A stretch of 20,459 nt of DNA from an uncultured Spirochaetota bacterium (GTDB lineage: Bacteria; Spirochaetota; Spirochaetia; SZUA-6; Fen-1364), in contig CAVUXE010000017.1 of NCBI GenBank assembly GCA_963745235.1, positions 1 through 20,459 on the forward strand. Direction: 5' to 3'. This document shows, in pieces, positions 1,207 through 20,459 of this stretch; position 1 is the stretch's first letter; the number at the start of each line of letters is the position of its first letter. The position numbers and the translations under genes were made by a program. The notes under the pieces are model-generated. The model did no database searches, was not told the DNA's origin, and worked only from the letters and a program-made list of their open reading frames with translations.

Positions 1207-1235
1207 TTGACAAGACATTCCATATATGGAATATT
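1207..1235 (+). promoter_or_regulatory. Promoter/operator of TA operon 2
   Basis: TTGACA-17 nt-AATATT containing the perfect 16-bp palindrome ATTCCATATATGGAAT (1217-1232). Confidence 0.65.
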
Positions 1236-1245
1236 CATGTATAGG

Positions 1246-1635
1246 ATGCACCGCCACAAAGAGGTAACTCCTACGGAAGAATGGGAGGTCGAGTATTCTG
1301 ACGAGTTCGGCCTCTGGTGGGATTCACTCACTGAGAGTGAGCAAGACGACGTGGCAGCAGTCGTAGAAGTTTTACAGAAGGTTGGTCCGACTTTGAGGCG
1401 GCCTCTTAGTGGCAGTATTGAGGGATCGCGCTATCCGAATATGAAGGAGCTTGTCATTCAACACGCAGGTAGCCCGTATCGGGTGCTGTATGCTTTTGAC
1501 CCTCGCCGAATCGCGATACTTCTTGTCGGAGGCAATAAGACAGGAAACGATCGCTGGTACGAAGAATTCGTACCACAGGCAGACAGGATTTACGGTGACC
1601 ATCTGAAAGCGGTGGAAAAGGAAGGATTACTATAA
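1246..1635 (+). CDS. higB: HigB/RelE-like (Gp49-like) type II toxin; start uncertain (1237 or 1246)
   Basis: WEVEYSDEF..WW..L...GPTLRRP.SGSIEGSRYPNMKEL...PYRVLYAFDPRRIAILLVGGNK. The TTG at 1207 is the -35 box, so it is unlikely to be the start. Confidence 0.88.
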   Translation: MHRHKEVTPTEEWEVEYSDEFGLWWDSLTESEQDDVAAVVEVLQKVGPTLRRPLSGSIEGSRYPNMKELVIQHAGSPYRVLYAFDPRRIAILLVGGNKTGNDRWYEEFVPQADRIYGDHLKAVEKEGLL

Positions 1636-1970
1636 TGGCAAAGAACTTTGCTGCTCTGATTAATAAGATGCCTGCGCCACGGCAGGCTAGAATCAAAGCC
1701 AAAGCGAATGCACTTCTCAAGGGAATGGCTTTGAATGAATTGCGTGAAGCGCTCAATCTCACCCAGGAGGAGCTGGCAACCACCCTAAAGGTTAAGCAAG
1801 CTGAGATTTCTAAGCTCGAACATAGGTCGGATATCTACCTGAGTACTTTAAGAAGGATTATTGAGGCAATGGGTGGGACGCTTGAGATAGTGGCGCGTAT
1901 GCCGGATGGTCCGGTTACAATACAGATGTTCAGAAAGGTGAGAAGTAGTCGTGGAGTCCGTATTAGTTAA
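1635..1970 (+). CDS. higA: HigA-like XRE HTH antitoxin
   Basis: TAATG coupling to the toxin. LNELREALNLTQEELATTLKVKQAEISKLEHRSDIYLSTLRRIIEAMGGTLEIVA. Confidence 0.9.
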   Translation: MAKNFAALINKMPAPRQARIKAKANALLKGMALNELREALNLTQEELATTLKVKQAEISKLEHRSDIYLSTLRRIIEAMGGTLEIVARMPDGPVTIQMFRKVRSSRGVRIS

Positions 1971-1997
1971 GACAGTCTTGGGCGAAACGATAGGCCT

Positions 1998-2025
1998 CAT
2001 GCCGATAAGCCGCTTCCGGTCTACT
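1998..2025 (+). other. dif-like recombination site candidate S1
   Basis: CATGCCGATAA-GCCGCT-TCCGGTCTACT (11-6-11), intergenic, 27 nt after the higA stop. Confidence 0.5.
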
Positions 2026-2244
2026 CCAGTAAGGACGAGCCTGTCTATGGGGAGCGGGACAGGCCTTGCGGCCTTGCTGACTCCAACGCTTCCCCATCCG
2101 TTGAACAAGAAATAAAGAAGCGCGAACGAAAGAGAAGGAGAGGGTGTAGCTTCGGATGTTTCTCGACCAACACGCCGCCGAGTGATTCGCGCCGCTGTCC
2201 AGGGGTGATTCACAGGCTAAGACAGTCTTCGATATTCTCCCCTC

Positions 2245-3279
2245 ATGTCAGAAGCACTGAAGGAACAATGGAGAGATCTGTTCGCCGCCGCCGAGGCTTT
2301 CCGGGAGCTCGGCCCCTGGGCATGGATGGACGACAGCATGGTTTTCGGAGTGGCGGATGGGAACCATGGACAGATTGCCTGGTGCTGTGTTCTGGGCCTG
2401 AGAGGGGAGGTTTTCGGGTTGGCCGCCTACCTTGGCTCCGCGGGGCTTAGCATCCACAGCAGAATCCAGGTTGGCGAACTGAGGGCAGAGGACGATGAAA
2501 TCCGTTATGGGTTTCCGTGCCTCATGGTGTCGTTTGAAAACCGCCAGGGACTGGAAGCCAGCGATCTTGCGCGCATAAAATCGCTCGGCCTCACCTTTCG
2601 GGGGCGCAACGGTTGGCCGCAATTTAGGAGTCATCGACGTGGATGGTACCCTTGGCGTCTCGATGGATCGGAGGTCGTTTTCTTTACTGAAGTACTGCAG
2701 CAAGCCTCTGCGGTATGCTTGCGGTTACGAGCCGAGCCGCAACTGCTGGAGCCACCACGGGCGAGGGAGCTTTTCGTTCGCGTGATGGCAGGGGATGGGG
2801 GGTGGACCGATCAGTGGACAAAACCAGTTCCCTCCCCTGTTGTACCACTTCAAGAATCCGTAGTGGACGAAACTGAGGCCGCAAGACTGAAAGGCTCGAC
2901 GGCCAGACAGGAAGGGATCTGGGAAGCGGACCTTTTTTACGTGCCCACTCCAACACGAGAGTCACCAGGTGAACGACCTTACTACCCTGTGGCCATGTGC
3001 TGGGTCGATCAACATAGCGGGCTGAGCTTGGGCTTTGAACTTCTTGAGCAGGCGGATGATCCTGACCTGAAAGCCTGGGCGTTGAACAAGCAGTTGCTCG
3101 AACTCGTAAAAAAGCACTCCATGATCCCACTGGCCATCCATGTCCCGCGACGGACTCTTGCAGCGGCGCTAGAGAAGGTGGCCGCGATCCTTGGATGTGA
3201 GCTATCTGCATCGAAGCGCCTGCCCGCACTGAAAGAGCTCAAGGCGAGCCTGTTCCAACGCTTCGCTGGTGGTAGGTGA
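2245..3279 (+). CDS. Conserved hypothetical protein, 344 aa (resembles DUF7309/DUF6930-type proteins, from memory)
   Basis: Long ORF with the pattern W..LF.AA..F..L.PW.WM.D...FGV...C.VLG..GE.FGLA.Y.G..GL and G...WPQFRS...G.YPW. Upstream TTCACA-18-TATTCT. Confidence 0.8.
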   Translation: MSEALKEQWRDLFAAAEAFRELGPWAWMDDSMVFGVADGNHGQIAWCCVLGLRGEVFGLAAYLGSAGLSIHSRIQVGELRAEDDEIRYGFPCLMVSFENRQGLEASDLARIKSLGLTFRGRNGWPQFRSHRRGWYPWRLDGSEVVFFTEVLQQASAVCLRLRAEPQLLEPPRARELFVRVMAGDGGWTDQWTKPVPSPVVPLQESVVDETEAARLKGSTARQEGIWEADLFYVPTPTRESPGERPYYPVAMCWVDQHSGLSLGFELLEQADDPDLKAWALNKQLLELVKKHSMIPLAIHVPRRTLAAALEKVAAILGCELSASKRLPALKELKASLFQRFAGGR

Positions 3280-3306
3280 TAGGAGGAGCCTTTCGATCTG
3301 AGTACA

Positions 3307-3334
3307 GCAGCTTATAATCGGCGATCGGTCTACT
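3307..3334 (+). other. dif-like recombination site candidate S2
   Basis: GCAGCTTATAA-TCGGCG-ATCGGTCTACT (11-6-11), 27 nt after the stop at 3279. Confidence 0.5.
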
Positions 3335-3602
3335 TGAGGAAGCCTAAGGGGGCGTGCCTCAAAGGGAAAGCCTGGCATCCCAAGCCTAAACCAAAAATGG
3401 GGCCGGTGCGGGACGCGGAAAACACTGCACCACCCGGGCAGGGAAGGCGTGGCGTACCAGAAATCGCGACGCTGTGTCCGTCTTGACGCGGCCCGCCGAA
3501 GGTATATGATGCCGGAAAGTTTTTCGCTGCTCTTCGTCGGCCCGTCCGCGCATCCTGTCAAACACCCACAACCGACAAGGAAAAGCCCAAGGGAGAAAGC
3601 GT

Positions 3603-4559
3603 ATGAAGAAACTATTGATGATTTTGTCGGCCTGCTTGTTCCTTACTCCCGTAGCCTTCGCTCAAGACTTCATCTCGCTTTTGCAGACTGGTACACCGGA
3701 GCAATTACAGACGGCAATAGCTGGAGGGGCAAAGGTCAATGACAAGATCACCGGTAGGACGCCCCTGATGATCGCGGCAGAGAAAAACCCAAAACCCGAG
3801 GTCATCACCACCTTGTTGAAGGCCGGGGCGGGACTGAACGACGAGTCCACTGAAGTCGCAACACCCTTGATGTATGCCGCGCGGAACCCGAACCCCGAGG
3901 TTATCTCTGTCCTCTTGAAGGCCGGGGCGAAGGATCGCCCGAACATTCCGCCCGGCATGGCGGCTGTCTGGACGGCTTTGATGTGGGCAGCGGGGTACAA
4001 CCCGAACCCCGAGGTCATGGCGACGTTGCTGAAGGCCGGGGCGAGAATTGACGAAAAAGATGGGGACAACGAGACAGCTCTGCTATGGGCGGCCAGGTAC
4101 AACGCGAATCCCGAAGTCATTACTACCCTGTTGAATGCCGGTGCCAAAATTGACGACAGAGCTGACAATCGCATGACGCCCTTGATAGTGGCAGCTGCGC
4201 GGAACCCGAACCCCGAGGTCATTGTGACGTTACTGAAGGCTGGGGCGAGAATTGACGACAGAGAAGGCAAAGGCATGACACCCCTGATGGAGGCAGCGAT
4301 GGCCAACAGCCCCGAGGTCATTTCCATCCTTCTGAAGGCCGGGGCGAAACTTGATGATAAAGACCCGAGCGGTCGAACTCCCTTGATGTGGGCGGCATGG
4401 CAGAACCATAACCCCAAGGTGGTCATGGTCCTTCTGAACGCGGGGGCAGACGGTAAGCTGAAATGCGATGACAAAACAGCCTTCGACTATGCCGCAGGAA
4501 ATGACAAGCTGCAGGGTACGGACGCATACGAGGCGCTGCGGACGGCGGCAGGGAAATAG
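3603..4559 (+). CDS. Secreted ankyrin-repeat protein
   Basis: Signal peptide MKKLLMILSACLFLTPVAFA and about 7-8 repeats of TPLM.AA..NPNPEVI..LLKAGA.ID. RBS GGAG. Promoter TTGACG-16-TATGAT at 3483-3510. Confidence 0.95.
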   Translation: MKKLLMILSACLFLTPVAFAQDFISLLQTGTPEQLQTAIAGGAKVNDKITGRTPLMIAAEKNPKPEVITTLLKAGAGLNDESTEVATPLMYAARNPNPEVISVLLKAGAKDRPNIPPGMAAVWTALMWAAGYNPNPEVMATLLKAGARIDEKDGDNETALLWAARYNANPEVITTLLNAGAKIDDRADNRMTPLIVAAARNPNPEVIVTLLKAGARIDDREGKGMTPLMEAAMANSPEVISILLKAGAKLDDKDPSGRTPLMWAAWQNHNPKVVMVLLNAGADGKLKCDDKTAFDYAAGNDKLQGTDAYEALRTAAGK

Positions 4560-4633
4560 GTGAGCGTCCTGTTATCAGGAGCGCCGACCTTACATGGGAC
4601 GCCGTTCGCCGGCTGTCAAATTTCCCCGGCCGC

Positions 4634-4662
4634 ACTGCCTATAACTATGCCTTCGGTCTACT
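4634..4662 (+). other. dif-like recombination site candidate S3
   Basis: ACTGCCTATAA-CTATGCC-TTCGGTCTACT (11-7-11; the CC could be a homopolymer error), between the ankyrin and hydrolase genes. Confidence 0.45.
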
Positions 4663-4829
4663 TCATCGAGCCAATACTCGGTGCTTGGGAAAGCTGCCTC
4701 GCAACTGCGAATCCCCTTTGTCGGCGGTATCCAAAGAGCAAGAAAACCGAGGGCCTGGTCCTCGAGAACGATGTTCTCGATGAGCGTAAGCGATTTGACC
4801 AGCTTTTCGCGATTGACTATTTACAAACC

Positions 4830-5570
4830 ATGAAAGCCGGGTATCTGGATGTGGGCAAACTTCACATGTACTACGAAATCCATGGCAGGGGCGATCCTCT
4901 TCTCATGCTGCACGGCGAATTCGCTGCGACAGGGATGTTCTCATTGGTGACGCCACAGCTCAGGAGAACCCGTAGAGTCATCTTGGTCGATCAACAAGGT
5001 CACGGTCGTACGGGTGATATCGACCGTCCCCTCAGTTTCAAGCAAATGGCGGAAGATACGGCTGCCCTTCTCAAGCAACTTTCTATTGAGAAAGTCGACG
5101 TTTTTGGTTACAGCGGAGGGGGTACAGTTGCGCTTCAACTCGCTGTCGAGCGTCCCCACTTGGTAAGAAGGCTGGCGTTGGCTTCGGCAATCTACGATGA
5201 ACATGGATACTACCCGGGCGTGATGGAACAACTCAAAAACCCCGTACCGGACGCTTTCCCCTTGCCGTTGCGAAAAGCCTACGAAGGAGTCGCTCCTAAG
5301 CCCGGGGACTGGAAGAATCTCGTATACAAAAGTGCAGAAATGGCAAGGAATCCGGCAACGGCCGGATTCCTTGAACGTTCTCAATTGCAGGAAATCGTTG
5401 GACCGACACTCGTCATTATCGGAGACAAGGATTTCATAGATCCTGACTATGCTGCGAATATGGCAGAAGCCCTGCATACGGAGTTGGTTATTCTACCAGG
5501 TGATCATTCGTCATATGTAGCGGAACAGCCTATCATGCTACTTGCCGCGCTCAACGACTTCTTCGGATGA
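4830..5570 (+). CDS. Alpha/beta fold hydrolase
   Basis: MYYEIHG.G.PLLMLHG, VDQQGHGRT, nucleophile elbow GYSGG, acid in GDKD, His in PGDH. The domain begins at ATG 4830, not 4560. Confidence 0.92.
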   Translation: MKAGYLDVGKLHMYYEIHGRGDPLLMLHGEFAATGMFSLVTPQLRRTRRVILVDQQGHGRTGDIDRPLSFKQMAEDTAALLKQLSIEKVDVFGYSGGGTVALQLAVERPHLVRRLALASAIYDEHGYYPGVMEQLKNPVPDAFPLPLRKAYEGVAPKPGDWKNLVYKSAEMARNPATAGFLERSQLQEIVGPTLVIIGDKDFIDPDYAANMAEALHTELVILPGDHSSYVAEQPIMLLAALNDFFG

Positions 5571-5735
5571 GGAACCTGTTTTAGAGCTCCGATTCCCATC
5601 CATCTTCGCGCGACCTCATAGTGGTCCGCATTGAAAAACTCTCTCCTCTAAACGTTTCTGATAAGGAATCGGGCACTCTATGAGACTTTCACTTCACATC
5701 CTGTGAAGCATCTTCTCGGAAACCGGATTTGGGAT

Positions 5736-6149
5736 CTATTGCTTTGTCTGACTGCCGCGTAACAGCTCCCAGAATGCTCTGGGAGATAGAATCAAGAGCG
5801 GTGTCTCGCTCGATACGGAAAGGAGATCATCATCTCCGGTCACTAGCACCTCAGCGCGACCAGCAATCGCCGAGGCCAGTATCCAACGGTCGGCAGGATC
5901 ACGAACAGGAACCTCGCTCGGTTTCTGTGGCTTCGGTACGAGTTTGACGACACCGAACACCGCTTTTGCGACCGCCACCTGTTCCTCGGGCAGTTTGAGC
6001 TTACGCGTAAGAGCCCGTTCGAACTCCGTCATGATCACGTCATTCAAGATCAACTCATGCTCGGCTAGGACAGTGCGAAGGACATCCGCACACAATCCCC
6101 GTGTGGCAAAAGCCGCCACAAGTACGTTTGTGTCTAGGCAGACCCTCAA
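5736..6149 (-). CDS. vapC: PIN-domain (VapC-like, PIN_3 type) toxin
   Basis: MRVCLDTNVLVAA, RDPADRWILASAIAGRAEVLVTGDDDLL. Start overlaps the antitoxin stop. Confidence 0.92.
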   Translation of the reverse strand: MRVCLDTNVLVAAFATRGLCADVLRTVLAEHELILNDVIMTEFERALTRKLKLPEEQVAVAKAVFGVVKLVPKPQKPSEVPVRDPADRWILASAIAGRAEVLVTGDDDLLSVSSETPLLILSPRAFWELLRGSQTKQ

Positions 6150-6367
6150 GAAACCACTCGGAACACGTCCTCGTCTGTGAGGTAGCCCCGGGCTTCGGCA
6201 AATGGCATGATTTGGCGGCGGGCTTCTTCGAACTGGAGCACCGATAGTTGCCGTCGGAGTGCCTCGCGCGCGACGGCGCTTCGGGACCGGCCGGTTCGCT
6301 TGGCAAGACGATCAAGCTGAAGCTCCATATCCGGGTCAAGCCGGATGGTTATGGCGGCAGTTTTCAT
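6146..6367 (-). CDS. CopG/RHH antitoxin (VapB-like)
   Basis: MKTAAITIRLDPDMELQLDRLAKRTGRSRSAVAREALRRQL...LTDEDVF. TTGCAA-18-TACAAT (TGn-extended) ends 7 nt before ATG 6367. Confidence 0.88.
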   Translation of the reverse strand: MKTAAITIRLDPDMELQLDRLAKRTGRSRSAVAREALRRQLSVLQFEEARRQIMPFAEARGYLTDEDVFRVVS

Positions 6368-6490
6368 GTATGACATTGTATCACGGTCGGTAGTGAGTTT
6401 GCAAGGGAGGGGGGATCAGCCCTGTCAGTTCAACTTCCGCTATCTTGCCTTCTGTCGATTGGATAGAATGTCACTCCAGAAGGAAACGAA

Positions 6491-7943
6491 ATGAAGCTGC
6501 CGTCAAAGCGTCGCGCCGCGAAGGCCGCCCTGCTGGCCTTCCTAGCCCTGACTATTTGCGCGCCATTCGCGCATGCGCAGTTGAGCCGTATGGCGGCGGG
6601 AGCCGAGGTGATCAATTCGCTTGCTGTCACCGCCGCGATCTGGGGAGCGCCCCTCGTCACTATGTTCAATCTCCGCTACAACGACGTGGTAGGACCGGCG
6701 GCAAAGGCCGCCCCAAACTCCATCTGGCGGGAGGCGGACATTTCCACCCCGCAAGTTGCCGAAGAGGCGGGCTACGTCACGCCAAAATGTGAACACGGTC
6801 TATGGTTTCGGCTTCCTCGATCTGGGGTCCCAGCCGCAGGTGCTGAGCGTACCCGATTCCGATGGGCGCTACTACATGGTCGAGATCGTCGACATGTGGA
6901 CAAACGCCTTCGCCTACGCGGGCGGCGTTGAGACGGGGTACAAAGGCGGAACCTTCGTCCTCGCTGGTCCCGGGTGGCAGGGGCCCCTTCCGGATGGCGT
7001 TCGACGCGTCGACTGCCCGGCGCGCTGGGTCATGATCCAGCCACGGGTCCATGTCGGCGGACCGGAAGACCTGGCGGCGGCGGAGAAAGTGCTGCATGCC
7101 ATAACTGTCACGGGCCTGGCCGAGTTCACGGGCCACCCGGCGTCGCCTGCGCCCGCTTATGCCTACGTGGCGCCAAACCGGAAAGATCCTAAACTGCCCG
7201 TCAGTGCCCTTGATTACCGCGACCCGCTGCAGTTCTGGGAGATTCTATCCGCGGCCATGAACGAAAACCCGCCGCCGTCCGATCAGCTATCAGCACTTGT
7301 GCCCCTCTTCGCGCCCCTCGGGCTAGCGCCGGGGAGGAGCTGGGACCGCACTAAGATGAACCCGCTGGTCCTACAGGCCATGGCCAAGGCCGCAGCTGAC
7401 ATCGGGCCCATCTTGGCCGCCTTGGGCGGCAACCACATCCGCAACGGCTGGGAAATCCCGCCGACAACCATGGGCGACTTCGGGACGGACTATCTAACTC
7501 GCGCCGTCATCGCCCGTAACGGTTTGAGCGGCAACACTCCAAAAGAGGCTATCTACTACCTCGCCTATACAGACAGTGCTGGTCAAGAGCTTTCAGGCTC
7601 CCAGGGCTACACTCTGACCTTTAACGAGACGCCGTCGGTTGTCGCGCCCGGCTTCTGGTCCGTGACAATGTACGACGCCGTCAACGATTACCCGATCTCC
7701 AATCCAATAAACCGCTACTCGCTGGGGAGCGACAATGCGGGCATGCAGCACAATCCCGACGGCAGTCTGACAATCTACCTGCAACGGTACACTCCGGGCA
7801 CTGACAAGGCGGCCAACTGGCTGCCCTGCCCACCGGGGCGCTTTTTTCTCGCTCTCCGCGCCTACGCGCCGGCGAAGGCGATGGTCAGGTCTCTGACCGA
7901 CCCTGCGGCCTACGAGCCGCCGATCATCGCCGTGGCGAAATAG
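6491..7943 (+). CDS. Exported DUF1254/DUF1214-domain protein (about 483 aa), split by a +1 frameshift at AAAA 6784-6787
   Basis: Signal peptide, AAIWGAPLV. Removing one A restores TPNVNTVYGFGFLDL. Also VPDSDGRYY.V...DMWTN, FWSVTMYD, NPINRYSL, DGSLTIYLQ, NWLP.P.G.F.L.LRAY. Confidence 0.88.
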
Positions 7944-11701: not shown

Positions 11702-11835
11702 CGCGACCCTTCATGTTGGCCGCGGACGGGAGAAATCCACCTCAAAGGGCCAAGCTGTTTCTTCACCGCTTAATATCGGTTTGGGTCTTTGGGGGCGATA
11801 GTTTTTCGATGGACTACCCCTTTTCACCTTAAGAG

Positions 11836-13437
11836 GTAACTGTTCAGCTGGTCTGAAGACAGTCAGTCAGGGTTAGGTCTTTTTCAAACGCATTCATGAG
11901 AGCGTCAATAACCGATAGGCCCTGCTTTCTGATCGTTGAGATATAACTTCGTATCCGACAGAATGAGAGCGCTCCCCCATTGCTTCGGAATGCCCCGGAT
12001 ACTTTCTGCTGGACCCTCATCATTCTTATATCTCGTTCTGCCAAATTATTGTCGAAGTCAACTCTGAAATCGGTCATGTATCGCAGGGTCTCCTCGCGTA
12101 GTCGTTCAAGTCTTTCCAACAGATTGCGTGCTTTGCTGCGCTTGATCCGGCCCCGTTTTCCGGGGCTGTCTGCCCGATGAGGCGATGGGTTGGCTTTCAT
12201 ACCACTTGCGATGATCGCTTTGTAGCGGCTCTCATATTTGCGAATGTCGCAGAGGGGTAGTTTCTTCTTCCCTGTGCGTTTTGCCTGCTCCACAGTTTGC
12301 TTGCTCTCCAGAAGAAGGCCGATCATTTGCTGCGCCCACACTTGGCCACCCGGTTCATAGACCGCCGTGAGTTCTCGAATGTGATGTGCGTTGCACAGCG
12401 AATGCGAGCACCTATATTTCATGTAGGGTTTCCAATTATCATGAACCGCGTTGCCTTTCAGCCGCGGCAGAATTCCTATCTGGTCTGTGGCGGCCGTCCC
12501 GCGCCTCTGATGAGGATAGTAGTAGGTGAACTCCTGAGTGCCCGCCCCGTGCAGCCAGTGCAGTTTGCCGTTGATGCTCAAGCCGGTCTCATCAAAGTGC
12601 ACCACTTTCGCCTGAATCAGTTTCTCCTTGATCTGCTCCACAACACCCTCGACTCGTTGCGCACACCGCCGATCGATACTGGCCAGCGTGCCAACGCTGA
12701 GGGGAATGGCGAACAGATCAGCGAAGGCTTGGGCGGCTCGATCGTAGGAAAGAAATCCATAGTTTTTTAGATACACTGCAAATGCCTTCAGCCGTGGACC
12801 GTACTGTGTTTTGTGACTTACCCCGAGTGGGAACACCGCTACCGAAAACTCGTGGCAGTGGGGGCAGCGCTTGATCTGGGCACGGTGTTCGGTCACATCC
12901 ACGGCGATGGGCGGAATATCGAAGACTTGTCGTGACTCATACCCTCGCGGCTTTTGCTGTTGCAGCGACTTGCCGCATCCCTGGCACACTTTGACTTCAT
13001 GAATCATCACCTGCTGCGGGTGTTCGACCATGGACAACGTTGTTCCCTCGTGCCCTTGCTGACCGCCAGGTTTTTTCCCGCTGGATTCTCGTCTCGTATG
13101 AATCCGTCGATGCAAGCCATCACTGGAGGGAGGCTTATCGCTGTTATGACTGTCCTTGCTGTTCTTCTCCTCCAGCGCTTTGATTCTTTGCGTTAACCTC
13201 TTGATCTGGTCTACCACCTGGTCGATGGTGTTGTCGTGCTGATCCTGTAGATACTCGATGAGAGAAACGATAGCCTCAGGGCCTGCCTTGTATGCATTCA
13301 GAATTTGCTCGCGAGGGATTCGCGGCAGATGATAGTCCTTTTCCTCTCCCATGCAACTGAGCGTGACGGACTTTTTGAGTTTCCGGAATACTTAACATCC
13401 GTCCGGTATTTCACCTCCCGGGGAGCTGAACAGTTAC
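11836..13437 (-). mobile_element. IS66-family insertion sequence, single-ORF type (ISBst12-like group), 1602 bp
   Basis: Perfect 14-bp terminal inverted repeats GTAACTGTTCAGCT (11836-11849 and 13424-13437). 8-bp target duplication CTTAAGAG / TTTAAGAG (7/8). Confidence 0.92.
11844..13352 (-). CDS. IS66-family DDE transposase
   Basis: SKDSHNSDKPPSSD, KKPGGQ.GH.G, zinc finger C..C...C..C, HFDETG, VHDNW, LCNAHHIREL, DNNLAERDIR...KVSG.FR. Confidence 0.96.
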   Translation of the reverse strand: MGEEKDYHLPRIPREQILNAYKAGPEAIVSLIEYLQDQHDNTIDQVVDQIKRLTQRIKALEEKNSKDSHNSDKPPSSDGLHRRIHTRRESSGKKPGGQQGHEGTTLSMVEHPQQVMIHEVKVCQGCGKSLQQQKPRGYESRQVFDIPPIAVDVTEHRAQIKRCPHCHEFSVAVFPLGVSHKTQYGPRLKAFAVYLKNYGFLSYDRAAQAFADLFAIPLSVGTLASIDRRCAQRVEGVVEQIKEKLIQAKVVHFDETGLSINGKLHWLHGAGTQEFTYYYPHQRRGTAATDQIGILPRLKGNAVHDNWKPYMKYRCSHSLCNAHHIRELTAVYEPGGQVWAQQMIGLLLESKQTVEQAKRTGKKKLPLCDIRKYESRYKAIIASGMKANPSPHRADSPGKRGRIKRSKARNLLERLERLREETLRYMTDFRVDFDNNLAERDIRMMRVQQKVSGAFRSNGGALSFCRIRSYISTIRKQGLSVIDALMNAFEKDLTLTDCLQTS

Positions 13438-13585
13438 TTTAAGAGAACACTTCGTTGGCGCAGCGAGGCTTCAGCGCGGGCAGCGCGTTTTTCAAGAGCC
13501 TCATCTGGGCCCTTGCGCCTCTGCAAACAGCTAGGCGAACGCAAAATCCCGCCAAACGGGACGCGTGGCGGGCCTTGGTGAGGTT

Positions 13586-13632: not shown

Positions 13633-14482
13633 TTACATCCCCCCAAACAGCTCCTCGTCGCTGAACGCATCCCGCACGTAGTAGCGCAACGTGGTCGCTT
13701 CATCGGAATGCCCGAGCAACCTCGAGACTGCCTTGATCCTCTTCGTTGCCGCCAGTAGATCTGTCGCCCTGCTGTGCCGCAGCACGTGCGCCGAGACAGC
13801 CCGCCCCAGCACCCGCCGAGCAGCCCGCGCAATCTCCCTTGAGATGTATTCCCTCTTGAAGTGCTGCCCTTGCCGTGACTGAAACAGGTAGGTGCCCTCA
13901 GGGTACACCGCCAGGATCCGCCTGTAGAGCTCGGCGGGGATCCTCGAGGTTCTTTCCTTGTCGCCCTTGCCGTAGAGCCGCAGCTCCACGGCACCATTGG
14001 TGCTGTTCACTTTGACCTGGTCCCGCCGAACGCCGAGCCCTTCAGAGACTCGAGCTCCCGTGACATACAACGTCTCGGCGATCAGCCTCACACGGAGGGG
14101 CAACGCCTCGAGGAGCATAGTGCGTTCCTCGGGAGAAACGACGGTCACCTCCGGCGGCGCCTTCTTCACCGCGGGGATCTCCCCCAGCGCTCCGCGGATG
14201 AGCGAGATCTCCTTGGCAGGGAGGCCCAAGCGCTCTGCTGCCTGGAGGAAGGCTTTGCGGCCGGCGGCCAGGGCCTGGTTGACGGTGGCCGCGGAGCGCG
14301 CTCGGCGGAGCTGGTGGATGTAAGCGGCAAAGCCATCGACGGTCACCTCCTGGCCGCTCTCAAGAAAGGCTCTGAGAGCCGTGCGGTAGGCCGCCGTGGT
14401 GAGGGCGCCAGCGCCTTTGACCCTCCAGGAGGGCGGAAGCCAGGTTGGTTGCAGGGCGGGCCTTGGTGGGGGTATTAGGCAT
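13633..14482 (-). CDS. Tyrosine recombinase (XerC/D-like); probable start 14482 with a +1 frameshift near 14421-14423
   Basis: Catalytic R (TGARVSE), K (GKGDKER), HxLR (HVLRHS), H (LLGHS), Y (TTLRY). The frame stays open upstream of 14346 (VKGAGALTTAAYRTALRAFL), and removing one G joins it to MPNTPTKARPATNLASALLE. Confidence 0.9.
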
Positions 14483-14496
14483 AGGACATCCCTAGA

Positions 14497-14524
14497 ATGT
14501 CACATAAATACTGTTATGTGTACT
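14497..14524. other. dif-like tyrosine-recombinase core site S0
   Basis: ATGTCACATAA-ATACTG-TTATGTGTACT: 11-6-11 layout with inner palindrome CACATAA/TTATGTG, 14 nt upstream of the recombinase start. Compare E. coli dif GGTGCGCATAA-TGTATA-TTATGTTAAAT. Confidence 0.75.
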
Positions 14525-14763: not shown

Positions 14764-15240
14764 TCATTCCAACCCCAGCTTCTGCCTCGTCGCGTGGTAC
14801 AGCCGCGCGATTGGAGGATAGTTCGCGGTCCCCTCAGAGACGAGGCCCAGGAGGATCTGGTACGCGCCCGAGTAGTCCCCTGTGTTGAAGAGTCGCTTGG
14901 CCTCGGCGAAGCGGGCAAGGCTTACAGAGGAGAGGGAGCTTGCCTCAGGGCTGCCTTCCTTCAGGAGGATGGTTCTGCGGAGAGCAAGGGCCGCAGCGTT
15001 GTCGTGATTGAGCTTGATTGCGACATCCAAGTCTTTCAGAGCTGGGTCGAAGGTCCACAGGTTTGCGGGATCATATTCTTCCCGCGCCCTGGACAAGGCC
15101 TGGTTTGATTGCGCAATCTGCGCCGCCGAAAGGGGACTGATGCGAAACCCCAGGCTGATTTCCAGCTCCTGGGTAGCGTCCTTTAGGGGCCGGTAGTTCG
15201 GCAGGACGTCCTGGTAGTCCTTCAGGGCAAAGTACAGGCG
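14764..15240 (-). pseudogene. C-terminal fragment of a helical/TPR-like protein abutting, or fused to, the relaxase
   Basis: LYFALKDYQDVLPNY..LK.A..ELEISLG...ALKDLDVAIKLNHDNAAA...AKRLFNTGDYSGAYQIL looks like real coding sequence. It has no start of its own; the upstream part of the ORF is an alternative frame of the relaxase. Confidence 0.6.
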
Positions 15241-16031
15241 ATCCCGCTGGCTTCCATCTCCTCGATCGCCCTGCCCTTGTGCACCCCGGGCACATGGTTT
15301 AGCTCGCGCGCTCGGCTGAGGTCTCCCCGCTCGAGGGCTTCCCCGAGCTGCACTGCGTTTCTCCTGTTGTCGATATGCACGTCTTTGTGTCCGACAAGCT
15401 GCAAGGCGTTGTTGCATGCTTTCTCCCACGCGGGGTGGGCTTCCCTCACCAGGTCGCGGCTGTGCCATTCAAGACTTGCTGTCTTTTTCTTTGCAAACCC
15501 CTCCGGTGTAATGTCTCGGTCAGTCGTTAGAACGTGAGCGTGAAAATTTCTCGCGTCGTTCTTTTCGTTTGGCTCGTGGATCACGTACTGCGCCACCATG
15601 CCCTTCTCCACCAGGTAGTCCTTGAGGAAGCTTCGCACCAGGTGCTCCGCCTCCTGCTTGCCGAGCTCGCAGGGGATGGGGAGCATCCATTCGCGCCCCG
15701 TGATGGCGTTGGACTTGCCCCCTGCGTGCTCGGCGTCGTTCCAAAGCCGCCCCGTGCACTCGCGGTATAGCCCCTTGTCGCTGGGGTCGACGTCCTTCAA
15801 GTATTCGGGCGCGTTCTCAGGGGCAATGATGCCCCGCGCGATGACCTGCTCCTCCCCGCGGTCGCCAAACTTGTAGTCGTGGGCCTCAAGGAACCTGTCC
15901 GCTTCCAGGTGCAAGTCCATGCGGTTGTGGTAGGCGGCTATTCCCACGGTGGTCATGGGCCTGTGGGTCTTGCCGATTGAGCGTGATCGCTGGATGGCCC
16001 GAACGCTGGGGTGGAGAGACTTGGTTTTCAT
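15222..16031 (-). CDS. mobA: MobA/MobL-family (MOBQ) relaxase, nuclease domain only
   Basis: Motif I GIAAY (catalytic Tyr), LWNDAE, REWMLPIP.EL, motif III VIH...NFHAHVLTTDR, W...CN..L, IDNR, P.VH.G....ME..GI. RBS AAGGAG. Confidence 0.9.
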   Translation of the reverse strand: MKTKSLHPSVRAIQRSRSIGKTHRPMTTVGIAAYHNRMDLHLEADRFLEAHDYKFGDRGEEQVIARGIIAPENAPEYLKDVDPSDKGLYRECTGRLWNDAEHAGGKSNAITGREWMLPIPCELGKQEAEHLVRSFLKDYLVEKGMVAQYVIHEPNEKNDARNFHAHVLTTDRDITPEGFAKKKTASLEWHSRDLVREAHPAWEKACNNALQLVGHKDVHIDNRRNAVQLGEALERGDLSRARELNHVPGVHKGRAIEEMEASGIACTLP

Positions 16032-16136: not shown

Positions 16137-16173
16137 ATGGAAGTGCCATGGGCACTTCTGTTAATTGCGCTCC
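16137..16173 (+). other. Candidate MOBQ oriT, predicted nic between 16169 and 16170
   Basis: Inverted repeat GAAGTGCC-atg-GGCACTTC, then TGT-TAATTGCG^CTCC. The MOBQ core is TAA(A/G)TGCG^CCCT. Lies between the divergent mob genes. Confidence 0.65.
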
Positions 16174-16241
16174 GACTACAAGCCACACAATAGCACTCCG
16201 TGCAAAATAGCGCAATGCGCTTGTGTGGCTTGTAGTCGGAG
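16170..16241. repeat. Perfect 21-bp inverted repeat with a 30-bp spacer
   Basis: CTCCGACTACAAGCCACACAA (16170-16190) and TTGTGTGGCTTGTAGTCGGAG (16221-16241). Confidence 0.9.
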
Positions 16242-16473
16242 GGCCGCGCCCCCCTCGGGTCCCTTCTGTGTCGGGTTCCTACACTGAGGCCCCCGCGAAG
16301 TGTAGGCGACACGGAAGGCGAGGCGGGCGCGGCCTAAGATTCGTCTTCGACTTTGCGGGGTGGTACTAGGTATGCGGCAGGGCGCCTGATCGTTCGCTAC
16401 AGCCCCGCCACGCGCCTTGGCCGGCGGCTTTCCGGGCGGCTATGCCGTCGAAACAGCTTACCAGGAGAAAAAC

Positions 16474-17498: not shown

Positions 17499-18394
17499 TC
17501 ACTCCCTCACCCTCTTCCAGGGCAGGCCAGCTATTGCCGCCTCGAGCCGTGCCGCACTCTGCGGATCACTCTGTTCGGCCAGGACCTTCTCCCGTTCGGC
17601 TTTCCGCTCCCGTTCTCCCTCTTCCCTCTCGCGTCTTTGATGCTCTTGCTCGCGATCTCGCGATACTCGGTCTCGGGATGCTTTACGCCACTTCAGAAAG
17701 TCCCGCGGAAAGAAGGTCACCCTCTCGGGCGCCGTTTCGACACATGTAGCGAAAGCCTGAATAAGCTCTTCCTCGGGGATGCCGCTACGGGTAAGCTCTG
17801 CGATGCCCTCCGACCAGTCCCTCCCGACCACCAGGGGAGCTTTTCGAGCTTGGGCCTCTTGTTTTATACGCGTAAGCAAAACAGAGAGAGAGGGAACGGA
17901 CTTCGGTACGGGTGTACGTCTTGGGAGGGATAGCCTTGCCGCGGGCCGGTGCACGCGCTCCCCTCTCTTTTGGTTTTCTGGATCTAGTTCAGATTGAATA
18001 TAGTTCGTGTGATCATGGCTCACAGGGGGCTGTGATTCACGATCACAGGGGGTGTCCTCCTGGGCGACAGGGGGGTACTTATGGGCTTCAGGGGCATGAG
18101 CTGGTAGACGTTGGAAGTCACACCGCCGTCGGGGCGAAATCGGGCGCTACGCTTGAGATAGCCCCGGGACTCCAGGCGAGTGAGGCTGCGCGCTACGGTC
18201 TCTCTGGCGCATCGGGCGAGCTTGCCTATCGTGGCCATGGAGGGCCAGCAGGTGCCCTCCCCGTCTGCGTGCTTGGCTATGGCCAAGTACACCAGGATAT
18301 CGACACGGCTGAGAGTCTGGTCCTCGAGGATGATGTTTTCGATGAGCGTAAAGGGTAGACGTCGACGCTCTACTCCGACGGAATCACTTTGCAT
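17499..18394 (-). CDS. Replication initiator with an N-terminal HTH_36-like winged helix (about 298 aa); frameshift near 18089-18094
   Basis: RBS GGAGG before ATG 18394. FTLIEN.IL.D..LS....VYLAI..HAD..G.CWPS..TI.......ETV.RSL..LE..GYL....R.......SNVYQL. Adding one base joins it to KYPPVAQEDTPCDRESQPPVSHDHTNY and ORF 17499-18023. Confidence 0.78.
18008..18075. repeat. Three intragenic iteron-like repeats (candidate replication origin)
   Basis: TGTGAtcatggcTCACAGGGGG (18008), TGTGAttcacgaTCACAGGGGG (18031), TGTCctcctgggcGACAGGGGG (18053). Period 23 and 22 bp. Confidence 0.7.
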
Positions 18395-19767: not shown

Positions 19768-20459
19768 TTGAAAACCATAGCCGTATGGGTAGCGAAAGGC
19801 GGGACGGGCAAGAGCTCGACGACAGGAAACCTGGTTTACGAGCTTCGGAAGCGGGGGCGCGTCCTGGCTATTGATGCCGATCCGCAGGGCAACCTTTCAT
19901 CATGGATACACCCGAAACAATTCGAGCATGGAGCTAGCCGATGTACTCACAGGAGCCGTGCAGCTGGCAGACGCTATCCTATCCGTGAGGGAAGGGCTCG
20001 ACCTACTTCCAACATTCGCCATTGGGGGTGGCTTGAAGGAATGGGCGGAGACAAAGCTATACGGGAAGCCACAGGCCTTCACGCGCCTCATTCGAGACAT
20101 ATCCGGCCTTGGATACGAGTACACCGTTTTTGATATGAGTCCAGGGGCATCGCTCCTGGAGCGCTCCATTGTTGCAGCAGTTGACGAAGCTCTACCGATT
20201 CTTCGGCCTGAAATTTTTTCCGTTGACGGACTAGAAGTGTTTGTCGAAACCCTTAACGAAATTCGGAATGATTTGGGTGGGCGCGTTGCTTCGTCTCGCC
20301 TTGTTGTCAACGGCCTGAATCGTTCGATCCCGGTTCATCTGTCCTACGCCGATTCTCTCGCAGGAAAGGGGCGGGAAGTTTTCATCATCCCGCAATCAGC
20401 AAGAATAACCAACGCGCAAACGGATCATGTTTTCCTCGCCGAATATGCTCCCGCCGATA
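19768..20459 (+). CDS. parA: ParA/Soj partition ATPase, 5' part; +1 frameshift at GG 19930-19931; continues to base 263
   Basis: Deviant Walker A KGGTGKSS and IDADPQGNLS. After removing one G the frame reads ELADVLTG...LDLLP...YEYTVFDMSPG. RBS GAGGAGG, TTG start. Confidence 0.9.
20240..20459. repeat. Terminal direct repeat, copy 2
   Basis: Matches 1-219. This copy keeps the parA frame intact. Confidence 0.97.

Follow-up and report, generated by a model that had tools for sequence, protein, structure and literature searches.

Directly repeated dif-like sites and the gene modules they may bound on a plasmid of an uncultured Spirochaetia lineage

The stretch of DNA analysed here, hereafter the window, is the 20,459-nucleotide contig CAVUXE010000017.1 of an uncultured Spirochaetota bacterium (assembly GCA_963745235.1), a plasmid whose accessory region is divided by three dif-like sites, S1, S2 and S3, arranged head to tail. 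From their sequence, their arrangement and the positions at which homology to other replicons ends, we consider it probable that S1-S3 are plasmid-borne sites of the Xer type which bound modules of cargo genes and are used by Xer-type recombinases, likely those of the host. A module in this arrangement consists of the right arm of one site, a promoter, one or more genes and the left arm of the following site. The window is the complete contig C17 of a genome bin (G000) of 5.85 Mb in 104 contigs, and its bases 1-219 recur at 20240-20459 with 98.6% identity and one 1-base indel, so that the replicon is circular and the plasmid, of about 20.2 kb, complete. Its G+C content is 0.564, against 0.612 for the genome. 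Throughout, C denotes contigs of this source genome, L outside loci, G the genomes of relatives and X1-X4 sequencing runs.

Dif-like sites on the plasmid and in the host lineage

Each of the three sites has two 11-bp arms, the left one ending in ATAA and the right one of the form TYCGGTCTACT, on either side of a G+C-rich centre of 6-7 bp (Table 1); the final base of S1 is C in the contigs of three of the four runs compared. The original prediction had placed them on the same strand, with different spacers, and the sequence reads exactly so: S1 lies 27 nt past the stop codon of a higA-like gene (stop at 1970), S2 27 nt past that of a DUF7309 gene (3279) and S3 74 nt past that of an ankyrin gene (4559). 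Its further proposal that they are sites of the dif type, with 11-bp arms around a centre of 6-7 bp, was borne out by their match to a candidate chromosomal dif of the lineage.

This chromosomal site was recognized through the pattern ATAAN{6,7}TTCNGTCTAC, which matches 27 of 40 related Spirochaetia genomes, representing eight families of the order, as against five genomes for the control read backward. Twenty-five relatives have exactly one site per genome, mostly on large contigs; the arms of these sites are nearly identical and their centre is A+T-rich, the form being ACTTCCGATAA-T(A/G/C)(G/T/A)(A/C)TA-TTCTGTCTAC(T). The source genome has a single, intergenic copy, ACTTCCGATAA-TAGATA-TTCTGTCTACT, at positions 126430-126457 of the 229-kb contig C99. 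In the closed genome G030 the site lies at 2.84 Mb, near the change in GC skew from plus to minus at 2.9-3.1 Mb (coarse sampling), while the skew of C99 is weak, its cumulative curve showing a broad plateau around the site and nothing sharper. Given its occurrence once per genome, the order-wide conservation of its arms, its 11-6-11 layout, its intergenic position and its proximity to a skew change, we read ACTTCCGATAA-N6-TTCTGTCTACT as the candidate chromosomal dif of this Spirochaetia order. Its left arm presumably resembles that of Bacillus dif; its right arm differs from the TTATG-type right arm of the textbook dif. A 2011 survey used a Firmicutes profile to predict spirochaete dif sites, which agrees with the ACTTCC left arm (PMC3025954).

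Measured against this site, the right arm of S1-S3 matches at 10 of 11 positions and the left arm of S3 at 9 of 11. The arms of S1-S3 imitate the chromosomal dif of the host lineage, which is a much closer model for them than S0, the near-palindromic site beside the recombinase gene of the plasmid. Two weight matrices were used to score the sites. The first, built from 18 similar sites outside the window contig, gives 35.0 bits to S3, 24.4 to S1 and 23.7 to S2; 20 bits were reached in none of 300 first-order Markov simulations of the plasmid, and S1-S3, for which a matrix scan against shuffled controls had been proposed, therefore lie far beyond chance. A candidate fourth site at 6433-6460 and S0 score 15.9 and 15.2 bits, respectively, with the same matrix. 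The second, fully independent matrix was built only from the chromosomal sites of the 25 related genomes. It gives 30.9 bits to S3, the third best score in the genome, in which 11 matches reach at least 25 bits as opposed to none in the reversed genome. Apart from the chromosomal site, matches of at least 25 bits sit on contigs of lower G+C content (0.55-0.57, versus 0.61 for the genome). S1 obtains 15.9 bits, in a range where the reversed-genome control still has 12 matches of at least 14 bits, and S2 falls below 14 bits, so that the identification of these two depends mainly on their right arm and ATAA. Likeness to dif is thus clear for S3, marginal for S1 and, for S2, carried by the right arm only. 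The candidate fourth site scores 21.1 bits (at least 20 bits: 17 matches in the genome, 3 in the control); no breakpoint evidence was found at it. A simpler count, made post hoc with a chosen word, finds the exact 9-mer CGGTCTACT three times in the window as compared with a mean of 0.07 in 100 shuffles, none of which reaches three; with one mismatch allowed, the count (7, against a mean of 3.08, with 6 of 100 shuffles reaching 7) is not significant.

The sites of the window belong to a larger family. The source genome contains 35 exact copies of CGGTCTACT, ten of which have ATAA at the right distance, or seven when only unique ones are counted, because C26 duplicates C17; the looser pattern ATAA.{10,13}GT[CG]TACT has 22 matches, against 5 in the reversed genome. 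Aligned copies share about 28 bp, namely (A)CTGCCYATAA, a G+C-rich centre of 5-7 bp and TTCGGTCTACT, and show outside their 28-29 bp neither conservation nor a dyad. Single copies in three relatives carry a TG(C/T)CC left arm, although the search pattern fixed only ATAA and the 9-mer. In the genome without the duplicate C26, together with six outside loci, a matrix of plasmid-type sites taken by their coordinates finds 48 sites of at least 20 bits, many of them members of its training set, and one in the reversed control. On viral contigs, the pattern ATAAN{6,7}TTCGGTCTACT yielded 69 single matches, an estimated chance number, only five of which reach 27 bits and none of which forms an array comparable to the present ones.

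The suggestion of a directly repeated array holds well beyond the window. All replicons with two or more sites of at least 20 bits keep them in one orientation, without exception among 34 sites on nine replicons (C81, 8; C8, 6; C74, 4; L074, 4; C17, 3; C34, 3; C3, 2; C19, 2; C30, 2), an outcome that random orientation would yield with a probability of 2^-25 by our own arithmetic. Twenty-seven of the 34 lie between -12 and 200 nt past the stop codon of a co-oriented open reading frame (ORF), versus 616 of 1800 random positions (34%). As a separate observation, the central regions of some 44 unique sites include three independent identical pairs, which is above chance by a rough estimate and is not used as support here.

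Homology breakpoints and module borders

The ankyrin module ends on the right at S3, and there begins a segment that differs from one plasmid variant to another. Within the assembly, C26 is equal to the window between 15267 and, round the circle, 4662, and stops at the final base of S3. In X1, X2 and X3, which come from three studies, contigs agree with the window up to 4663 and then run into another sequence, the end of C87. X1 and X4 contain yet another variant, which leaves the window sequence after 4652, at the border between the central region and the right arm of S3, to continue with a different, degenerate right arm. The second plasmid variant in the assembly (C26, C87 and C103) shares 15239 round to 4662 with the window at 98-99.9% identity, and holds between S3 and mobA a LuxR-type regulator, an acyltransferase, a pantothenate-kinase-like gene and a recombinase 79% identical to that of the window. 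A border at S2 emerges from L074, an independent metagenome contig with four co-oriented sites, the last module of which is the ankyrin module. The match of this module to the window begins inside S2, at the ATAA and its border with the centre, and runs to the final base of S3; the first two bases of the centre differ, and identity is 92% over 1361 nt (BLAST) and nearly complete beside the site. The left arm of S2 and all that lies upstream of it are unrelated to the window, L074 having there one HTH and one cydAB module, both with further co-oriented sites at their borders, and beyond S3 L074 switches to the C87-type flank.

Homology to other replicons had been expected to end at the sites. 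It does so at S2 (L074) and at S3 (C26, X1-X4, L074), and not at S1. The ankyrin module thus occurs in two plasmid settings, C17 and L074, and its borders coincide with sites, while the DUF7309 gene recurs on C8 without a border at the level of the site. The breakpoint pattern suggests that the left arm remains with the upstream gene and that the right arm goes with the downstream module, a partition of the arms predicted by strand exchange at the borders of an Xer central region. The left arm is the XerC-side and the right arm the XerD-side arm; host XerC and XerD, the most likely enzymes, would pair two sites on different molecules, the partner being a one-site module circle or another plasmid, and exchange strands at the central-region borders. 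Integration, or formation of a cointegrate followed by its resolution, would leave behind direct repeats and hybrid sites, the left arm being kept by the upstream gene while the right arm moves with the downstream module. Xer recombination needs matching central regions; since the centres of neighbouring sites differ (Table 1), the array should be kept from deleting itself. We infer the acting enzyme, the path of the reaction and any present activity from these patterns.

The genes bracketed by the sites are unrelated and were predicted to have their own promoters, and promoter-like matches do lie inside both modules (Table 1). Modules do not always consist of single genes, contrary to what the window alone had suggested, those elsewhere containing 2-7 ORFs. 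Their cargo includes cydAB, encoding a cytochrome bd oxidase; a RES/Xre toxin-antitoxin pair with another DUF7309 gene; a chemoreceptor; an adenylate cyclase with a cytochrome P460-like protein; and an oxidoreductase-MarR fusion. Near-identical copies of the region 1900-4800 are present in runs of eight studies of soil, peat, bog and freshwater sediment. The segment that follows S3 in the window is known only in this plasmid form: read-contig depth over 4807-5874 is zero in X1, X3 and X4 and low in X2, which is an absence of cover and not proof of absence. It contains a 41-nt remnant of the rep gene (4749-4789), 84 nt after S3 and 88% identical to 18311-18351 in the N-terminal coding part of that gene, which may be a relic of plasmid fusion. 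The rep genes on contigs of other plasmids match only this 41-nt piece.

A number of observations weigh against the view that S1-S3 are recombination sites bounding mobile modules. Breakpoint support is confined to S2, in one comparison, and S3; none was found at S1, and the contigs of all four runs compared span S1 and S2 exactly as in the window. The swapped segment has its right end at about 15239, inside mobA, where there is no site; ends at S3 and in mobA do fit a fusion at sites resolved by homologous recombination. The DUF7309 gene on C8, 89% identical, loses homology at its stop codon, some 40 nt before the dif-like site that follows, and on the other side homology ends about 170 nt after S1. 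Relatives carry homologues of both the DUF7309 and the ankyrin gene in chromosomal context on large contigs (L079-L082), with no dif-like site within 1.5 kb of them and thus no further breakpoints. Arm spacing varies from 5 to 7 bp, the G+C-rich centres are unlike the chromosomal TAGATA, and the left arms of S1 and S2 fit the chromosomal arm poorly, as their scores with the independent matrix indicate. The assignment to a host rests on a binned genome with 5.87% contamination (85.7% completeness). Recombination and binding were not observed, nor were excised circles or empty junctions, and in Acinetobacter comparable cassettes, including one with direct repeats, were not excised in assays (PMC11705084).

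Two further repeats lie near the sites. An exact 12-nt direct repeat, TAAGACAGTCTT, at 1968-1979 and 2218-2229 flanks 250 bp holding S1, one copy overlapping the higA stop codon and the other falling within the conserved DUF7309 leader. The second is a 47-nt element (4567-4613) situated between the stop codon of the ankyrin gene and S3, of which copies with about 90% identity are present on C19, C31 and C11 as well as in some eight relatives; it can form small hairpins and is not consistently adjacent to dif-like sites.

Table 1. Positions of the sites, cargo genes and other features of the window.
Feature	Position	Strand	Description
higB-like and higA-like pair, upstream of S1	1207..1970	+	Gp49/DUF891 and HTH (Pfam); promoter-like site 1207-1235
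S1, dif-like	1998-2025	+	CATGCCGATAA / GCCGCT / TCCGGTCTACT; 11-6-11
S1-S2 cargo	2245..3279	+	DUF7309 + DUF6930 protein, 344 aa; Pfam 1.1e-51, 8.2e-27; promoter-like 2209-2236
S2, dif-like, left border of ankyrin module	3307-3334	+	GCAGCTTATAA / TCGGCG / ATCGGTCTACT; 11-6-11
S2-S3 cargo	3603..4559	+	Ankyrin-repeat protein with hydrophobic N-terminus, 318 aa; Pfam Ank_2 6e-58; promoter-like 3483-3510
S3, dif-like	4634-4662	+	ACTGCCTATAA / CTATGCC / TTCGGTCTACT; 11-7-11
Segment after S3	4663..6432		rep remnant, alpha/beta hydrolase, vapC/vapB
Alpha/beta hydrolase	ATG near 4830, end 5570	+	Pfam
vapC/vapB	5736-6376	-	PIN/RHH, vapBC-like; Pfam
Candidate fourth site, degenerate dif-like	6433-6460	+	ACTTCCGCTAT / CTTGCC / TTCTGTCGATT
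Xer-like tyrosine recombinase gene	13633..14482	-	Pfam Phage_integrase 2.3e-21
S0, near-palindromic dif-like site beside the recombinase gene	14497-14524	+	ATGTCACATAA / ATACTG / TTATGTGTACT
Plasmid gene content	window		ParA, HTH_36 Rep-like, MobA/MobL relaxase, Mrr-type endonuclease (Pfam scans)
Plasmid gene content, further	window		DUF1254/DUF1214 protein, three ABC-transporter components, IS66-family transposase, tyrosine recombinase (Pfam scans)

Candidate enzymes and competing explanations

Two sources of recombinase come into question, the host and the plasmid. The source genome encodes a XerD-like protein on C52 (242895-243755), which scores 322 bits with the XerD model (cut-off 329.6), and a second Xer-like protein on C9 (231568-232437), which scores 184 bits with the XerC model (cut-off 335). 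The recombinase of the plasmid falls below all curated cut-offs, its best NCBIfam match being of the XerA type (111.8 bits; cut-off 220), and PDB entry 4a8e is among its best matches. Its N-terminal ~20 codons are in another frame, intact homologues measuring 279 and 285 amino acids; this frameshift may be an assembly error, as four runs show one-base insertions relative to the window and other genes are also split. S0 sits just upstream of the gene, 15 nt from its first ATG. Its arms are conserved and its centre variable at six loci in three genomes (beside homologues on C38, C82 and C103 and in two other Spirochaetia bins), so that recombinase and S0 look like a self-contained dimer-resolution unit, with a probable role in resolving plasmid dimers. 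Close relatives of the recombinase occur in Spirochaetia genome bins; PLSDB holds none, all of its 643 matching records being below 60% identity and those with the best E-values coming from Brachyspira plasmids (31%). Homologues that are 53-61% identical (L113, L114 and L117; C30, C70 and C11) are accompanied by dif-like sites of a different, more asymmetric kind, which overlap the start codon or lie immediately upstream of it (for example AGGTTCCCTAA-GTCAAG-TTATGTCTACC), and site and enzyme appear to change together.

On present sequence evidence, host XerC and XerD rather than the plasmid recombinase most likely act on S1-S3. We regard it as unlikely that they are worked on by the Xer-like recombinase of the plasmid family itself, for which S0 would be the home site, in the manner of an integron integrase with primary and cassette sites. 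S0 does share with S1-S3 its 11-6-11 layout, the ATAA on the inner side and the terminal GTNTACT, yet their arms fit chromosomal dif better than they fit S0, and the array begins about 7.7 kb from S0 in the window. C81 has an integron-like arrangement: immediately upstream of its recombinase gene is an S0-like site, some 23 nt past which comes a good dif-like site (23584-23612), and about 700 nt further along there is another. The more distant homologues described above also adjoin sites that are more dif-like. C8, on the other hand, has six sites and only distant tyrosine recombinases, the nearest homologue being about 32% identical over a fragment, which indicates that arrays do not need this recombinase family; C19 and C94 also lack a close homologue, and G017 has a site, with no homologue reaching E<=1e-40. 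G007, G012 and G016 contain both the recombinase family and sites whose centres are G+C-rich, as would be expected anyway of two things that are both plasmid-borne, and the genomes of relatives in which the two could be compared are too few to separate the candidate enzymes. The window copy of the recombinase is moreover out of frame near codon 20, possibly through the assembly error mentioned above. The idea that the plasmid's own recombinase drives the array has therefore lost ground, given the closeness of the arms to chromosomal dif and the arrays that lack a close homologue.

Also doubtful is a true Xer-based cassette platform on the plasmids of environmental spirochaetes, in which modules of one to a few genes would leave as one-site circles and re-enter at any dif-like site, with the plasmid recombinase as dedicated integrase, alone or together with host XerD acting on the invariant right arm. 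Uniform direct orientation means that each module could exit as a one-site circle. If such a platform exists, it would be the functional counterpart of an integron, made out of dimer-resolution machinery and possibly widespread in plasmids that have never been scanned against the dif of their own host.

Alternatively, S1-S3 might be ordinary plasmid dimer-resolution sites of the cer or psi kind, accumulated by fusions of small plasmids and subsequent deletions, the modules being relics of the fusions instead of individually mobile units. We hold this to be quite improbable. The rep remnant 84 nt after S3 is of the kind that a fusion may leave, and the swapped segment ends, at S3 and inside mobA, where a site-specific fusion resolved by homologous recombination would place its ends. 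Work on Acinetobacter likewise prefers fusion over excision (PMC11705084). The modules of the window are nevertheless free of replication genes; replicons carry up to eight sites, most of them directly after a co-oriented gene; and the ankyrin module alone, with both ends at sites, is common to two otherwise different arrays. Conserved accessory sequence beside the sites is absent, unlike in cer and psi.

That the motif is not a recombination site at all, being either a chance likeness or an element of gene 3' ends (a terminator or some other regulatory or RNA element), is suggested by its position just past stop codons and by the weak scores of two of the three sites with the independent matrix, but is very hard to credit given that simulations never reach the scores of S1-S3, that the arms match a once-per-genome chromosomal site, that the sites have no stem with T-run and no conservation beyond 28-29 bp, that no Rfam family was found in a scan of the window, and that breakpoints fall at S2 and S3.

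Relation to known systems and other features of the plasmid

The reading of S1-S3 as host-type Xer sites that bound modules places them in a system that works like dif modules and integrative mobile elements exploiting Xer (IMEX), outside the C/D-module scheme of Acinetobacter and outside integrons. The closest likeness is to the Acinetobacter modules (pdif, xrs). In these, several dif-like sites of 28 bp on a plasmid mimic host dif, bound modules of toxin-antitoxin or adaptive genes, with the same module present in different plasmids, and have a XerD-side arm better conserved than the XerC-side arm around variable centres (PMC13141974, PMC6449649, PMC11705084). There the sites alternate in orientation, giving C and D modules, and direct-repeat modules are exceptional (PMC13141974), whereas all 34 sites are direct here. 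The host, moreover, is a Spirochaetia lineage from peat, soil and sediment with an unrelated dif sequence, the centres are of 6-7 bp with one of 5, and the backbone consists of HTH_36 Rep, MobA and ParA instead of the Rep_3/OrfX of Acinetobacter. Alternating sites mean that single modules cannot excise, according to the same report (PMC13141974), and it is on this account, the sites being inverted, that module movement in Acinetobacter is disputed.

What is new is hence an Acinetobacter-like principle of dif modules with direct rather than alternating sites, in an unrelated, uncultured lineage. Plasmids that shuffle modules between multiple dif sites have hitherto been treated as a peculiarity of Acinetobacter: a 2019 study reports no pdif sites in Psychrobacter or Moraxella plasmids and calls the feature characteristic of Acinetobacter (PMC6449649), and the literature searched describes multi-site dif modules for that genus and for no other group. 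Strictly direct orientation is the arrangement that permits simple excision and integration. If confirmed, the shuffling of modules by borrowed host dif machinery would be a general route of gene exchange among plasmids, detectable only by scanning each plasmid against the dif of its own host, and would offer a natural system for asking what keeps arrays of direct dif-like repeats stable.

IMEX such as CTX-phi, TLC-phi and the gonococcal genetic island resemble the present modules in that they too are elements between direct dif-like repeats. They have no integrase of their own, can be stacked in tandem and produce hybrid sites with one degenerate arm. In contrast to the plasmid array, they insert at chromosomal dif, the chromosomal site on C99 being single, and they are phages or islands equipped with genes for their own replication or transfer, whereas the units described here carry one to a few cargo genes. 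With integrons the system shares a head-to-tail array in which a gene is followed by a recombination site at its 3' end, and accretion by one-site circles is plausible. The attC sites of integrons are long imperfect inverted repeats with a conserved core, and their cassettes are promoterless. Here, by contrast, the sites are double-stranded, of the dif type and 28-29 bp in length, there is no folded attC, the modules have promoter-like sequences of their own and the recombinase, which scores 73.3 bits with the integron-integrase model TIGR02249 (cut-off 265) and matches the XerA type best, is not adjacent to the array in the window. The proposed accretion array stands as regards dif-type sites, direct arrangement and module borders; its proposed link to the plasmid recombinase is weak. 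S0 and its enzyme, lastly, recall XerS/difSL, XerH/difH and archaeal XerA/dif in combining a small Xer-like enzyme with a near-palindromic 11-6-11 site directly upstream of its gene, and differ from these single-recombinase systems in being plasmid-borne and below every curated family cut-off.

Several other features of the window deserve mention. An extra single base follows positions 125 and 4623 in all four runs compared with it, and genes are split between frames at 13633-14482 (recombinase), 14764-16031 (mobA), 6491-7943 (DUF1254/1214) and 19768-20458 (parA); the assembly probably has single-base indel errors, so that the split genes may in fact be intact. A 34-nt inverted repeat (85% complementary, 10-nt loop) at 16167-16244, which precedes the start of the relaxase gene by about 140 nt, is a candidate oriT, and three tandem 22-nt repeats (TGTGAT...ACAGGGGG) that abut the end of the rep gene at 18008-18074 look like iterons. 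The IS66-family element at 11833-13438 has terminal inverted repeats and appears to have been recently active; copies 99-100% identical to it are present on C6, C15, C7, C34 and C5, and a split copy on C48.

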